A stretch of 64,000 nt of DNA, taken from positions 1-64,000 of IMG/VR virus record IMGVR_UViG_3300042562_001017; one strand, written 5' to 3'. The DNA is from a virus. The notes under the pieces are model-generated. The model worked only from the letters and a program-made list of their open reading frames with translations. It made no database searches and had not been told where the DNA came from. A program made the position numbers and the translations under genes. Shown here piece by piece: positions 40,909 through 45,138 of the stretch. Within the stretch, counting starts at the first letter, position 1, and every line of letters starts with the position of its first letter.

Positions 40909-41196
40909 ATGATACAAGCAAACGGAATCATAAAAGATTCAAACGGGGTCACTGAATATTCAAACCCTTTAATTAATGTTTACATGAACTCAGGTTCAAA
41001 GTTTGTGCCTACTATTGGAGTGGCGCAAGTTGGTAAAATTGTAACTCAAGGAGAAACCGAAAGTTTCAATCCAGTTGCTCAAATAGGCACTTACGAATAC
41101 ACTTTAGAAAACCCTAGCTTTTTAGAAGTACAACAAGCAGTCTTGACAGGTTTAGAAACAGACTATCCAGAAGTAACATTTTCAATAATCGAATAA
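40909..41196 (+). CDS. Fibre-associated hypothetical protein
   Basis: ORF track. Confidence 0.6.
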   Translation: MIQANGIIKDSNGVTEYSNPLINVYMNSGSKFVPTIGVAQVGKIVTQGETESFNPVAQIGTYEYTLENPSFLEVQQAVLTGLETDYPEVTFSIIE

Positions 41197-41228
41197 AACC
41201 AAAAAATGCTAATTAAATTATAGCTGGG

Positions 41229-41260
41229 TTTGCTTTTTAATATTTTTTTTTGTATATTTG
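41229..41260 (+). promoter_or_regulatory. Consensus Bacteroidota promoter of the HNH gene
   Basis: TTTG-N20-TATATTTG, 5 nt before ATG 41266. Confidence 0.75.
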
Positions 41261-41265
41261 TTTCT

Positions 41266-42078
41266 ATGAATAATACAGATAAAATAGGACTAAGATTTAA
41301 CAGATTAGTTATTGTTGAATTAGCAGGGAAAGATAAGTTTGGCAAAACTTTGTATAAATGCCTGTGCGACTGCGGAAATTATAATATTACAAATATTAGT
41401 CAGCTAAGAAGTGGTAAGACTGGAAGTTGCGGATGCTATCATAGAGAAAGGATTTCAGAAAGTAAAAAGAAAGATTTGACAGGATTTTCTAATAATAGAT
41501 TAACTGTCATAAAATTATCTTCTGAAAAAAAATCTAGCAATCAAATGTGGATATGCAAATGCGAGTGCGGCAACGAAGTGATTGTGAAAGGTGCTAGCAT
41601 AGCAAATGGGAATACAAAATCTTGCGGATGTTTAAGTATTGAAAAAATAATAGAAAGAAACACAACGCATGGCAAAAGCAGCACTGATGAAGCCAAGGTT
41701 TGGTATAGAATTAGAAAAAGATGCTTAAACCCAAAAGACTATAATTATAATAGATACGGTGGCAGAGGAATAAAAATATGCGATAGGTGGTTAAATAGTT
41801 TTGAAAATTTTTTATCTGATATGGGCAAAAGACCAACTTCAAAACACAGTATAGATAGGATAGATAATAATGGGGATTATGAGCCAAATAATTGCAGGTG
41901 GGCAACAAGACTTGAGCAAGCTAATAATACCTCAAAATGTGTAGAGATTATGCATAAAGAAACTGGTGTTTTTTATACATCAATTAATGCAGCTTCTAGA
42001 GCATTTAATCTGCCTAAAGGTTTTCTGGATGACCAATTAAGAAAAAGAAATAAAAATAGTAAATTTGTAAAATTATGA
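41266..42078 (+). mobile_element. Free-standing HNH homing endonuclease
   Basis: Two CxCxCGN...SCGC repeats, [29 protein letters not shown]. Confidence 0.88.
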
Positions 42079-42248
42079 ACAACACAACAATTAAAGTAGA
42101 ATTAAGCTTAGACCAGTGTCAGCTAATTCTTTCGGGTTTAGCGGAATTACCAGCTAAACATTCTATTGATTTAATCTTAAAACTTAAAACTGAGTTTGAA
42201 TCACAAATCAAAGAATCAGGTGCTGAAGAAGCAGAAGTAGTAAAATAG
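42075..42248 (+). CDS. Small helical protein (57 aa), fibre-chaperone-like
   Basis: Read manually: [38 protein letters not shown]... Confidence 0.6.
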
Positions 42249-42252
42249 TAAA

Positions 42253-42999
42253 ATGAAGAACTTACCTAAAGAAGAACTTTTAAGCCGACTAGAAGCAATT
42301 AATCGCAGCAATGCTATTATTTACTTTGACTTGAACGGATTTATTCTTGGCGTCAATGCAATCTTTTTGAAGGCTATGGGCTTTCAAGAAGACGAACACG
42401 ATAAGCTAATTGGCAAACATCACTCTATCTTTGTTGACTATAAGTATAGCAAATCGGAAGAATATGTAAAGTTTTGGGAGGTTCTAAGAAGCGGAAAGTT
42501 CTTCGAAGGAGAGTTTGAAAGGAAAAAGATTGATGGTAGTCCAATTTATTTGCAGGCTACTTACAACCCAATCTTTGATGAAGACGGAAACATCACTAAA
42601 ATAATGAAGATTGCAACCGATATTTCTCAGATGGTTGTAAGTAAAAAAAAGATTGATGAATTATCCGCTAATCTACAAGCAGAATTAGAAAATTCAAACA
42701 AGCTAAAAGAAGCTATTGAGATAGAAAAGGATGCAGCTTTAAACGACCTAGACGCAAGTATTAAGAAAAGCCAAAACGAACTGATTAAAGTGATTGTGAA
42801 AAGTGCTTTATTTGTCATTATGAGCGTAGGCTTCATTACAACTATCATGTATTCCTTTGCTATTCTTTCAAACAAAGATACTCAGATAATCGGCTCAACT
42901 TGGAGTAATATGTTTAGTGTTTTATTGACAAACGCATTCTCAATAGTTGGAACTATTATGGGTATTAAATACGCAACCTCAGATAATCAAACTAAATAA
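42253..42999 (+). CDS. PAS/PAC domain + coiled coil + 2-TM membrane protein
   Basis: AINRSNAIIYFDLNGFILGVN..F...GKHHSIFV...FWEVLRSG..FEGEFER..IDGSPIYLQATYNPIFDEDG.ITKIMKIATDIS is a chemoreceptor-type PAS; two C-terminal hydrophobic helices. Confidence 0.88.
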   Translation: MKNLPKEELLSRLEAINRSNAIIYFDLNGFILGVNAIFLKAMGFQEDEHDKLIGKHHSIFVDYKYSKSEEYVKFWEVLRSGKFFEGEFERKKIDGSPIYLQATYNPIFDEDGNITKIMKIATDISQMVVSKKKIDELSANLQAELENSNKLKEAIEIEKDAALNDLDASIKKSQNELIKVIVKSALFVIMSVGFITTIMYSFAILSNKDTQIIGSTWSNMFSVLLTNAFSIVGTIMGIKYATSDNQTK

Positions 43000-43006
43000 A
43001 TAAACT

Positions 43007-43471
43007 ATGCAATTAAGTACTAATCTTTCATTAGCCGAAGTTACAAGAAGCGAAACCGCTAAACGTAAAGGAATTAGTAATATGCCAACTCCTGAGCATA
43101 TTGAGAACTTTAAGAAGTTAGCTGCAAATATATTCCAACCAATTAGAGAACACTTTGGCAAACCTATTATAATCAGTTCAGGTTATAGAAGCGCAGAGTT
43201 AAACAAGGCTATCAGTGGAAGTTTGTCCAGCCAACATTGCTCAGGTGAAGCGATTGATATTGATATGGATGGAACGGACATTACCAACAAGCAAATCTTT
43301 GATTACATTAAAGACAACTTAAATTTTGACCAAATGATTTGGGAATTTGGAACAGATGCTAATCCTGATTGGGTTCACGTTTCTTTTGCTGCAAATAGGT
43401 CACAACGTAAACAAATATTAGTTGCTAAAAAGGTAAATGGAAAAACCACCTACACTCCTTACGTTAAATAA
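43007..43471 (+). CDS. Endolysin, peptidase M15 family
   Basis: SSGYRS, SQHCSGEAID, WVHVS. Confidence 0.85.
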   Translation: MQLSTNLSLAEVTRSETAKRKGISNMPTPEHIENFKKLAANIFQPIREHFGKPIIISSGYRSAELNKAISGSLSSQHCSGEAIDIDMDGTDITNKQIFDYIKDNLNFDQMIWEFGTDANPDWVHVSFAANRSQRKQILVAKKVNGKTTYTPYVK

Positions 43472-43472
43472 A

Positions 43473-43748
43473 ATGGCTGAAGCTAAGTTGACTGTTATAG
43501 ATAGAATGAAGATATGGGCATTCCCTGTGAGTATGTCCATTATATCTTTTTACCTTTTTGCTACATTTAAAAAATTAGATGAGGTGCATGCTGATGTTCA
43601 TGCAGTAAAGATTTCTATAGAAGTGCTTAAAAAGGATATAGATTATTCTAAAGCTACTGTTAGTGACCATGAACAAAGACTTAGAGGTTTAGAAAAATCA
43701 ACATCAGTAGATAATACTAGAGTAAACTATGAAGCTTATAACAATTAA
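43473..43748 (+). CDS. Single-TM coiled-coil lysis-cassette protein
   Basis: TM WAFPVSMSIISFYLFATF, then DHEQRLRGLE. Confidence 0.55.
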   Translation: MAEAKLTVIDRMKIWAFPVSMSIISFYLFATFKKLDEVHADVHAVKISIEVLKKDIDYSKATVSDHEQRLRGLEKSTSVDNTRVNYEAYNN

Positions 43749-43769: not shown

Positions 43770-44201
43770 ATGAAATACTTAATTTTACTTTTAGTAATTA
43801 TCTTTTGTTCAGCTGTAATGGACACAACAAATTACATTGCAGCTTTTTTAAAAAGAAAAGGCTATCAAAAATTATTTGAATGGTTTAATAGTAATAGCTG
43901 GAAAAACAAATGGCGTTTTTCAGAGTGGCTTCAAAAAATTGGATTAAGTAAGAGGTTAGCTAAATGGCTTGCAGCAGATGTACTTGTTATATTTACTGAT
44001 GGATGGCATTTTTTTAAAGCAATAATGATGGCTTTGATTCAATATATGGTTGCTGTTCTATCTATTGGTAATGTAAATAGCTTTTTGATTTTTATTAACT
44101 TTCCTATTACAAATATTAGCGTTGAAGTATTAGCCTTTATTTTGTTCTTAGTAGGAGGTCAAATATTTAATTTAATTTTTTACAGATTTAGAAGATTATG
44201 A
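43770..44201 (+). CDS. Multi-TM membrane protein
   Basis: 3-4 hydrophobic segments; SWKNKW, TDGWHFFK. Confidence 0.6.
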   Translation: MKYLILLLVIIFCSAVMDTTNYIAAFLKRKGYQKLFEWFNSNSWKNKWRFSEWLQKIGLSKRLAKWLAADVLVIFTDGWHFFKAIMMALIQYMVAVLSIGNVNSFLIFINFPITNISVEVLAFILFLVGGQIFNLIFYRFRRL

Positions 44202-44482
44202 TGCCAAACATTCAAGAGTTTAAATGGATAGAAATGTTTACTGATAGTAAAGGTAGAACAAGTCCAAGTAAAGTATTAGGATTTTTTGGAGGAGTAATTT
44301 CTTTATTAGTATTCTTTATAGCTGCTATGGATGCTATATTTTTTTCTTTAAATGAATTTAGTAATGGTACATTAACAACACTTACTGTTCAAGCATTAGC
44401 TTTATTTACTGCTAGTGGAACATTATTAGGTATTAGACGTTTTACAAAAGATAAAGAAGTATTAGATGAAAAAAACAATTAA
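44198..44482 (+). CDS. Holin-like 2-TM protein
   Basis: DSKGRTSPSKV, two TMs, charged C-tail. Confidence 0.55.
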   Translation: MMPNIQEFKWIEMFTDSKGRTSPSKVLGFFGGVISLLVFFIAAMDAIFFSLNEFSNGTLTTLTVQALALFTASGTLLGIRRFTKDKEVLDEKNN

Positions 44483-44855
44483 AAATTTTAAGATAAAAAA
44501 TATGAGTGTTGATAAAGTATTAAATTTTATATTATTGCTATTTATAGTGTTAATTGTTATTTTTAAAAATAATGAAACAAATAAATTAGAAAAACAAATA
44601 AATGAAATGTCTTTAAAAGAAGACACTTTATTTACTAATTACAATAAGTTATTGAATAATTATGAAACTCATGATTCAGTATTAAATTTATCTATAAATA
44701 ATAGAAAACAAAATGTATATGTTACTAATAAAATAATTTACGAAAATGAAAAAAAAGATATTGTTAACCTTTCTGATTATCACACCGATAGTTTGTTTAA
44801 GTCAAATCTCAAATGGGCTTACGCTAGATACTTCTATTTATTTAACGAAAACTGA
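44466..44855 (+). CDS. Spanin-like inner-membrane protein
   Basis: N-terminal TM plus coiled coil; overlaps the next gene. Confidence 0.45.
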   Translation: MKKTIKNFKIKNMSVDKVLNFILLLFIVLIVIFKNNETNKLEKQINEMSLKEDTLFTNYNKLLNNYETHDSVLNLSINNRKQNVYVTNKIIYENEKKDIVNLSDYHTDSLFKSNLKWAYARYFYLFNEN

Positions 44856-45138
44856 TAAAATTGTAGTTAATCTTATGGCTAAAGAAATTAAACAATTAGA
44901 AAAACAGTCTTTAGGTAAAGATACTATAATCAATGAATTGGTTGAAAGAATCAATTGGAAAGATGTTATGATTAATTCAAATAAGAAAACTATTGCAGAC
45001 TATAATAATAAAACTTCTAAATTAGAAAAAGAAAACGTAAATTTGAAGAATTCAATTATTAAATATAAATCTAGATATAATATTGCATTAACTGTTGCAA
45101 TTATAGAAGGAGTTATATTAACTTTATTATTATTATGA
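44746..45138 (+). CDS. Spanin-like protein (signal peptide, coiled coil, C-terminal TM)
   Basis: MKKKILLTFLIITPIVC..., C-terminal IALTVAIIEGVILTLLL. Confidence 0.45.
   Translation: MKKKILLTFLIITPIVCLSQISNGLTLDTSIYLTKTDKIVVNLMAKEIKQLEKQSLGKDTIINELVERINWKDVMINSNKKTIADYNNKTSKLEKENVNLKNSIIKYKSRYNIALTVAIIEGVILTLLLL

Follow-up and report, generated by a model that had tools for sequence, protein, structure and literature searches.

A window of 64 kb, meaning the whole stretch of DNA that was analyzed, was taken from the 81-kb IMG/VR virus record IMGVR_UViG_3300042562_001017, which has a CheckV completeness of 93%. The element of interest is a gene, termed here the sensor-hairpin gene, encoding a PAS sensor domain, a long helix and a hairpin of two transmembrane (TM) segments, and located directly upstream of an endolysin gene. 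An initial annotation of this DNA had placed the two genes at 42253 to 42999 and 43007 to 43471, and both were found there on the plus strand. The sensor gene ends, as annotated, 7 nt before the endolysin gene, with a TAA codon at 42997 to 42999 followed by ATAAACT and an ATG at 43007. The features of this pair of genes are as follows.

42253 to 42999, plus strand: sensor-hairpin gene, 248 amino acids (aa), comprising PAS domain, long helix and two-TM hairpin (open reading frame [ORF]; PAS as the only Pfam match; AlphaFold2 model; family members 70 to 85% identical).
42310 to 42630, plus strand: cytoplasmic PAS domain, approximately residues 20 to 126, flavin type by similarity (PAS_9, E 5e-11; PAS structures binding flavin adenine dinucleotide [FAD] as best matches).
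42625 to 42768, plus strand: coiled-coil or signaling helix, residues 125 to 172, continuous with TM1 (AlphaFold2 helix 125 to 206 with a predicted local distance difference test [pLDDT] score of 75 to 91; juxtamembrane motif DLD..KKSQ.ELI).
42769 to 42870, plus strand: juxtamembrane segment and TM1, residues 173 to 206 (hydropathy peak at 177 to 195; AlphaFold2 helix; hydrophobic substitutions tolerated family-wide).
42880 to 42978, plus strand: invariant stretch of 33 residues, TQIIG...IKYAT, residues 210 to 242, forming the periplasmic turn and TM2 (identical in 39 non-redundant sequences).
43007 to 43471, plus strand: endolysin, Peptidase_M15_3, 154 aa (Pfam E 1e-20; phrog_894 endolysin E 3e-41; 46% identical to the M15 endolysin of a related locus, L175).

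Four Pfam families matched residues 19 to 126 of the sensor protein at scores above their cut-offs (PAS_9, 43.2 bits against 27; PAS, 38.9 against 22.6; PAS_3, 39.0 against 25.6; PAS_4, 30.6 against 23.1), the PAS_9 match extending over residues 22 to 126. No MCPsignal, kinase or cyclase domain was detected in the same Pfam search. With 58 family sequences as input, AlphaFold2 modeled an unbroken helix from residue 125 to 206, a turn at 207 to 210 and a second helix from 211 to 246, with pLDDT values of approximately 80 to 90 in this part, and hydropathy placed the TM segments at residues 177 to 195 and 220 to 238. Pfam, AlphaFold2 and hydropathy thus agree with the annotated layout of a PAS domain, a helix and two TM segments lacking a chemoreceptor, kinase or cyclase output. 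Both termini are cytoplasmic (N-in/C-in), and the protein ends in ...SIVGTIMGIKYATSDNQTK, with KYATSDNQTK as a short charged C-terminal tail. Two TM helices, this tail and an adjoining endolysin gene would suit a holin; the size of the protein would not (248 aa here and approximately 370 aa in most relatives).

An independent 251-aa protein with a single PAS domain, P0124, had the same layout and was 85% identical to the window protein, and contigs from four lake metagenomes ran gap-free across the PAS-to-helix region and bridged the end of the sensor gene into the start of the endolysin gene. The single-PAS layout is, therefore, a real sub-lineage and not an assembly artifact. These Logan contigs are short, and none covers the whole stretch. 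In a phylogenetic tree that did not resolve its origin, the single PAS domain grouped with P0124 near the first PAS domains (PAS1) of the longer relatives, and it carried a mosaic of PAS1 and PAS2 signatures; it may be ancestral or may have arisen by recombination between PAS1 and PAS2. At least 16 metagenome runs from lakes or fresh water, dating from 2016 to 2025, contained near-identical DNA, and no RNA run was among those listed for the stretch. Lake populations exhibited many variants within positions 42183 to 42570 of the window, often spaced three bases apart (for example, at 42393, 42396, 42399 and 42402), a pattern that fits strain diversity under purifying selection on the sensor gene.

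A profile of this type of PAS domain (A7) was compared to solved structures in the PDB. The best matches were MmoS (3EWK, 2.8e-16), Aer (8DIK, 4.9e-10) and NifL (2GJ3, 1.9e-6), with the LOV domains of phototropins next, and the PAS motif G-K-H-H-S-I-F aligned with GQDHRIV of MmoS and GQPHNMV of Aer. As structures of FAD-binding PAS domains were matched first, a flavin-based redox sensor is the best guess as to the nature of the input. The nearest cellular relatives of the PAS unit were soluble multi-PAS proteins with an MCPsignal domain (L007 to L010; 37 to 45% identical), so that the label of chemoreceptor-type, BdlA-like PAS given in the initial annotation was a fair one. That annotation had left the cofactor as heme or flavin and the stimulus as oxygen or redox; the flavin and redox part of this assignment is favored, by similarity.

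Among 5.8 billion proteins searched, thousands matched the query, and the best 120 of these matches were described. These homologues were 69 to 78% identical over approximately 94% of the query and approximately 370 aa long, with two PAS domains, a helix and the two-TM hairpin; this double-PAS arrangement is commoner than the single-PAS form of the window. In IMG/VR there were at least 235 matches for the fused form and more than 561 for a form of approximately 195 aa that ends in the same hairpin. The four closest matches in genome collections were in metagenome-assembled genomes (MAGs) labeled as Ignavibacteria, Flavobacteriales, Saprospira and Saccharibacteria and had phage-like neighbors; these loci, with sensor and lysis genes (L003, L004, L005 and L006), are probably phage DNA that was mis-binned into bacterial genomes. 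A profile of the C-terminal module, made from the last 115 residues, detected nothing in 400 sampled genomes from the phylum of a Bacteroidota MAG. The matches on viral contigs, the inconsistent MAG labels with phage neighbors and the absence from the 400 sampled genomes indicated that the family is phage-borne, and an origin of the gene as a host protein that had lost one PAS domain was rejected on the same grounds. Relatives carry the Joint Genome Institute (JGI) name "methyl-accepting chemotaxis protein," which does not fit a phage-borne family; the MCPsignal domain is absent from both the window protein and the relative P0001. Low G+C content and co-binning with MAGs suggest that the host may belong to the Bacteroidota.

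Other collections added little. There was no match to the hairpin module among 50,697 cultured-phage records, in which PAS-only matches occurred in three records, with none for P0146. Megablast of 10 kb found nothing. PADLOC matched neither the sensor protein nor its relatives and gave one weak match, for the 103-aa neighbor of the endolysin, while the only ESM Atlas match of the sensor protein was an unnamed viral cluster at 0.79 and the only PHROGs matches were weak ones to phrog_1544, a family of unknown function. No description of a PAS-, GAF- or kinase-driven lysis protein was found in the searched literature, in line with the view of the initial annotation that no example had been described.

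When the module profile was run against 1.84 billion representative proteins, 112 representative clusters were recovered (78 at E<=1e-10), and the module was C-terminal in most. It was fused to a different, Aer/MmoS-like single PAS domain in P0136 (227 aa) and to a GAF domain in P0133 (360 aa). The most frequent carrier was a protein of approximately 195 aa consisting of a small N-terminal domain, a very long helix and the hairpin. In a sister group of loci (L091 to L170), the gene for this protein followed a PAS histidine kinase and a response regulator in 69 of 79 loci, and the three members of this trio, listed here from different loci, are exemplified below.

L116, 100 to 1332: PAS kinase.
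L120, 4228 to 4665: response regulator.
L093, 5001 to 5594: hairpin protein of approximately 195 aa.

The kinase of the sister group is a membrane protein of approximately 410 aa with a PAS domain of the same type as the fused PAS and an HATPase_c domain; no HisKA family matched its phospho-acceptor region. The response regulator is a single-domain protein of 145 aa that has kept the acidic pocket, the aspartate, the serine/threonine and the lysine. As the PAS domain of the kinase is of the fused type, the same input appears either to be fused with the hairpin or to reach it through a phage two-component system, and an input that may be fused or relayed is the usual signature of a signaling output domain. 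The window genome had no receiver-domain homologue, as expected for the fused form. The architecture of one PAS domain and two TM segments singled out initially is found in phages; two PAS domains are usual, however, and the hairpin serves as a general output, which a GAF domain or a two-component system can also drive.

The hairpin is also the part of the protein under the strongest constraint. A run of 33 consecutive residues covering the outer turn and TM2, TQIIGSTWSNMFSVLLTNAFSIVGTIMGIKYAT, was invariant in 39 non-redundant sequences that were only approximately 65 to 85% identical elsewhere, and the window sequence carried these residues exactly. Thirty of the 33 codons varied synonymously, including switches between TCN and AGY serine codons; since synonymous sites vary freely, the stretch is constrained as protein and not as DNA. 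In the wider family, TM2 was again the most conserved part, against 25 to 50% identity elsewhere, and the module could be described by a signature of a juxtamembrane DLD..KK.Q.EL, TM1, a short turn and a TM2 with ..TWSN.F..LLTN.FSI.GT..G.KYA. TM2 contains a stripe of small and polar residues with a spacing of three to four residues (S-x3-S-x3-T-x3-S-x2-G-x3-G).

The hairpin is, as far as sequence comparison reaches, without known relatives. No homology to a holin, pinholin or antiholin family was detected in Pfam or PHROGs, so that the comparison with holin families called for by the initial annotation came out negative; two of 49 wider-family members touched the holin family phrog_689 (E 0.006), which was read as noise. 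Nor was homology detected to the Phage_holin_4_1 proteins that adjoin the hairpin in other phages. The possibility of the hairpin being a paralogue of a neighboring small two-TM protein was rejected, with an hhalign probability of 0.35%.

Linkage to lysis genes was surveyed by calling ORFs in 85 loci, clustering four genes on each side of the sensor gene and naming the clusters via Pfam and PHROGs. A recognized endolysin was present within 1.45 kb of the sensor gene in 70 of the 85 loci, at a median distance of 284 bp, and approximately half of the other 15 loci end at a contig end. The endolysins were of several kinds (GH19, M15_3, GH24, and PG_binding_1 with phrog_3000) and were positioned up- or downstream of the sensor gene, giving eight combinations of type and side. 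Adjacency of homologues to endolysins had been set beforehand as the check on the initial annotation and was thus observed for four endolysin types and on either side. The variety of these arrangements indicated that the linkage to lysis genes is not due to one inherited block.

Holin candidates were present in 59 of the 85 loci and consisted of Phage_holin_4_1 proteins and a two-TM protein of approximately 88 aa belonging to no family. The latter was detected in 48 loci, mostly at position -1 or +1 relative to the sensor gene. In L016 to L018, L012, L014, L041 and L078, the small two-TM gene was miscalled as an antisense ORF of 82 to 121 aa (cluster c16, minus strand); the figure of 48 is an underestimate, as the longest-ORF caller took the antisense ORF where the plus-strand gene probably lies. 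Holin-like genes were found in 57 of the 79 sister-group loci and endolysin genes in 47, with the genes ordered as small two-TM protein, endolysin, Phage_holin_4_1, a further gene, histidine kinase, receiver and hairpin, or in the mirror order. As most cassettes already carry canonical holin candidates, the sensor protein appears to be an accessory and optional part rather than the holin. The invariance of TM2 was independent of the variable holin and endolysin types, which favors self-packing of TM2 or a constant target over a holin-specific contact.

Two other kinds of gene were noticed by eye beside the sensor gene. A protein of approximately 750 aa resembling a TonB-dependent outer-membrane receptor was present in L034 to L036 and L063 (for example, L036, 6489 to 8738), and one of approximately 366 aa resembling polyphosphate kinase 2 was present in L013, L037 to L039, L044 and L086 (for example, L039, 3450 to 4556).

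Within the window, the sensor gene and the endolysin share a codon bias, as annotated: their G+C contents at third codon positions (GC3) were 0.34 and 0.29 and their C contents at these positions (C3) were 0.19 and 0.17, in comparison with 0.06 to 0.23 and 0.03 to 0.12, respectively, for most neighboring genes. C3 was also raised, to 0.18, in a 95-aa gene at 40909 to 41196, and the raised GC3/C3 block of 40909 to 43471, made up of this gene, the sensor gene and the endolysin, adjoins an HNH endonuclease gene. Five small membrane proteins (103, 143, 94, 129 and 130 aa) are encoded after the endolysin, between 43437 and 45138, and none matched a known holin family. The other features around the pair are listed below.

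41230 to 42078, plus strand: HNH endonuclease gene, upstream border of the raised-GC3 block (phrog_374, E 9e-85; GC3 values).
42075 to 42248, plus strand: 57-aa gene, a synteny anchor common to L175 (blastp to the 54-aa protein of L175, E 5e-7).
43437 to 43748, plus strand: 103-aa protein with one N-terminal TM segment (26 to 44) and a coiled coil, overlapping the 3' end of the endolysin gene by 35 nt (ORF, hydropathy; weak phrog_6179 match).
43770 to 44201, plus strand: 143-aa protein with three hydrophobic segments, a holin candidate solely from its topology (no family in Pfam or PHROGs; unlike the Phage_holin_4_1 alignment A8).
44198 to 44482, plus strand: 94-aa two-TM protein with a charged C-terminal tail, a holin or antiholin candidate (ORF, hydropathy).
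44746 to 45138, plus strand: 130-aa protein with an N-terminal signal and cysteine (PIVC) and a C-terminal TM segment, in a layout like that of a unimolecular spanin (ORF, hydropathy).

The phrog_6179 family was also matched by an 85-aa gene adjoining the PAS gene in other loci, and the 103-aa protein may be a lysis-cassette accessory. Membership of the 143-aa protein in the Phage_holin_4_1 group was rejected for want of a match to that group, and the window genome as a whole had no PF05105 (Phage_holin_4_1) match. The 94-aa protein gave a weak local match to the alignment of the small two-TM family (A1; 21 columns, E 0.017, probability 2.7%) and is possibly a divergent member of this family, which flanks the sensor gene elsewhere.

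Two relatives of the window phage were found via a 221-aa gene downstream, which was 80% identical in L174 and 54% identical in L175; the sensor gene was absent from both. The order in L175 was a homologue of the 57-aa gene, two small two-TM genes, the M15 endolysin, a TM protein, a lipoprotein with a C-terminal TM segment and the 221-aa gene, so that the sensor gene of the window fills the slot of the two small two-TM genes. Lipoproteins with a C-terminal TM segment occupied the position of the 130-aa protein in both relatives, and no sequence similarity to it was found. The absence of the sensor gene from these relatives and the presence of small two-TM genes in its place in L175 indicated that the gene is optional and sits in a holin-type slot. 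An HNH gene was also present at the edge of the lysis cassette in L174; with the HNH gene beside the raised-GC3 block of the window, this suggests exchange of cassettes between phages, helped by homing endonucleases.

The reading that we prefer, while giving it somewhat less than an even chance, is that the sensor-hairpin gene is an optional, phage-only part of lysis cassettes encoding a sensor-gated, pinholin-like hairpin that sets the timing of lysis. The PAS domain would bind flavin and report the redox or the respiratory and energy state of the host. The protein would pair through the long helix, as a parallel coiled-coil dimer or a higher oligomer, and a change in the sensor would twist or shift this helix and thereby move TM1 against TM2. 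The small and polar face of TM2, once freed, would pack with other copies into a small pore, in a manner comparable to the pinholin of phage 21, whose TMD2 is controlled by TMD1. A resulting drop in membrane potential would trigger the ordinary holins and release the soluble M15 endolysin, such that the lysis clock would be overridden or set by the state of the infected cell. The signal may either speed or delay lysis; the former, a trigger, was considered somewhat more likely. A broader proposal, which is likewise tentative and to be taken as a possibility on the low side of even, is that aquatic phages encode both one-component (PAS or GAF) and two-component (PAS kinase, receiver and docking domain) signaling systems with a shared output, the invariant hairpin, which would gate membrane permeabilization so that lysis timing is set post-translationally by redox or energy state.

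Several observations weigh against the proposal of a gated pinholin-like hairpin. The hairpin has no homology to holin, pinholin or antiholin families or to the neighboring small two-TM protein. Holins diverge fast, and an invariant TM helix is unusual for them; the invariance of TM2 could equally be due to binding of a host membrane protein that is itself conserved. Since the phages with these loci are related, the counts are not independent events, and lysis regions are common sites for unrelated accessory genes. With respect to the sensor, the PAS part of the AlphaFold2 model was poorly resolved (pLDDT of approximately 35 to 65), and the residues aligned to what we take to be the FAD-binding region of Aer were only partly kept in the phage PAS. 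The sensor-gated holin or antiholin of the initial annotation stands in part: linkage to lysis genes, the resemblance of the sensor to flavin and redox PAS domains and the slot of two small two-TM genes in L175 speak for it, while the absence of holin-family homology and the accessory character of the gene depart from the idea of a holin proper.

An inhibitor of the antiholin type, in which the hairpin would bind the phage holin or holins in the membrane and keep them from acting until the cytoplasmic sensor signals a particular state, or for as long as it does, and so prevent, for example, premature triggering in a passing energy drop, is unlikely but is the first alternative to be weighed. 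Such an inhibitor would be comparable to lysis inhibition by RI/RIII on holin T in T4, or to that in ICP1. It draws on the same evidence of lysis linkage and modularity as the gated pinholin-like hairpin, and an optional gene is what would be expected of an accessory regulator. The small two-TM protein, a conceivable partner, is mostly directly adjacent in the 48 loci in which it was detected. Furthermore, the only known signal-dependent controls of lysis are inhibitory (PMC11413866, PMC7182436). A holin-specific binder should, however, co-vary with its partner, and TM2 is invariant though the holin candidates differ, being Phage_holin_4_1 in some phages, the small two-TM protein in others and neither in the window. 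Many antiholins are also paralogues of holins, whereas the hairpin has no homology to the neighboring two-TM protein.

A membrane protein with no part in lysis, acting in superinfection exclusion or on a conserved host protein of respiration or transport, would explain the invariance of TM2 across phage backbones through a constant host target; the lysis region would then serve simply as a hot spot for late-expressed accessory genes. The optional presence of the gene, its raised GC3 and the HNH endonuclease gene at its border are common traits of mobile accessory genes, and the genes resembling polyphosphate kinase 2 and TonB-dependent receptors lie beside it in some loci. The linkage to endolysins is, however, tighter than a regional association (the median of 284 bp) and persists among loci that differ in endolysin type (four), orientation (both) and signaling architecture (two), and a role outside lysis was judged rather unlikely.

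It is improbable that the sensor protein is the main holin of the window phage, that is, a large holin regulated by its own cytoplasmic domain and forming by itself the holes through which the M15 endolysin leaves. The position directly upstream of the endolysin with a gap of 7 nt, the occupation of the slot of two small two-TM genes in L175 and the lack of a Phage_holin_4_1 match or a clear member of the small two-TM family in the window genome would all suit such a role, as would the N-in/C-in topology with two TM segments, which is that of class II holins. In most other phages, however, the protein coexists with canonical holin candidates; the relatives L174 and L175 do without it; and further small membrane proteins follow the endolysin in the window. 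A length of 248 to 370 aa is far above the typical size of a holin, and the extreme conservation is unlike that of holins. A captured or decayed fragment of a host chemoreceptor, or a decoy for host PAS signaling, is very improbable, as the similarity to soluble multi-PAS chemoreceptors (37 to 45%) and the JGI names are outweighed by the lack of an MCPsignal domain, by conservation being highest in the hairpin and not in the PAS, by the location of the family on viral contigs, with four inconsistently labeled MAG contigs that look mis-binned, and by the failure to find the hairpin in the 400 sampled Bacteroidota genomes.

Lysis timing largely sets the fitness of a phage, and the known controls are few: the intrinsic clock of the holin, premature triggering upon collapse of the membrane potential, and lysis inhibition upon superinfection in T-even phages and ICP1. 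We know of no studied phage that times lysis from a dedicated intracellular sensor. If the gated hairpin is correct, phages would time the bursting of the infected cell by its physiological condition, an old question that would become open to direct test, and the lysis clock of phages would for the first time be seen to answer to a dedicated sensor in the cytoplasm. The hairpin would constitute a new output domain for signal transduction of the bacterial type and a compact sensor-to-membrane switch for study or re-use. Phages with the gene are common in lakes, and the sister group is abundant on IMG/VR viral contigs; a shift in the time of bursting would thus have consequences for the carbon that putative aquatic hosts of the Bacteroidota type turn over.

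The closest parallel in topology is the pinholin of phage 21, S21-68, a class II holin of approximately 70 aa that forms a two-TM hairpin. Both proteins are encoded in lysis cassettes and have two TM segments with both ends in the cytoplasm, and in both one helix has a small and polar zipper face that could line a small pore while the other helix could regulate it. No sequence similarity was detected, however, and the phage sensor protein, at 248 to 370 aa, is several times longer, its TM1 running without a break into a long cytoplasmic helix that is joined to a sensor domain. The window endolysin lacks a signal-anchor-release segment, and TM2 of the sensor protein is invariant whereas holins are variable.

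Lysis inhibition provides a second comparison, being mediated in T4 by the antiholins RI and RIII acting on the holin T (PMC11413866) and in ICP1 by TeaA/ArrA (PMC7182436). The likeness is in the signal-dependent timing of hole formation and in an accessory protein acting in the membrane next to the holin, and in holin T a membrane protein of lysis has large soluble domains with a regulatory role. In T4 and ICP1, however, superinfection provides the signal, and its detection takes place in the periplasm or through small dedicated proteins, whereas the input to the hairpin is a standard cytoplasmic PAS or GAF domain or a phage two-component system, and there is no homology. As no homology was found to either, the sensor-hairpin protein belongs to neither the pinholins nor the lysis-inhibition systems.

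On the sensory side, Aer, NifL and MmoS provided the best PAS matches among solved structures, and in each the PAS domain is followed by a signaling helix; Aer is, in addition, membrane anchored with a cytoplasmic PAS, as is the phage protein. These three signal through an MCP kinase-control domain, a NifA-binding domain or a histidine kinase, whereas the phage protein has the membrane hairpin as its only output, and the flavin is bound FAD in these proteins but is predicted by similarity in the phage PAS. The soluble multi-PAS chemoreceptors with the BdlA-type architecture, although the nearest cellular relatives of the phage PAS unit, have the MCPsignal domain and lack the membrane hairpin, while the phage protein exhibits the reverse.

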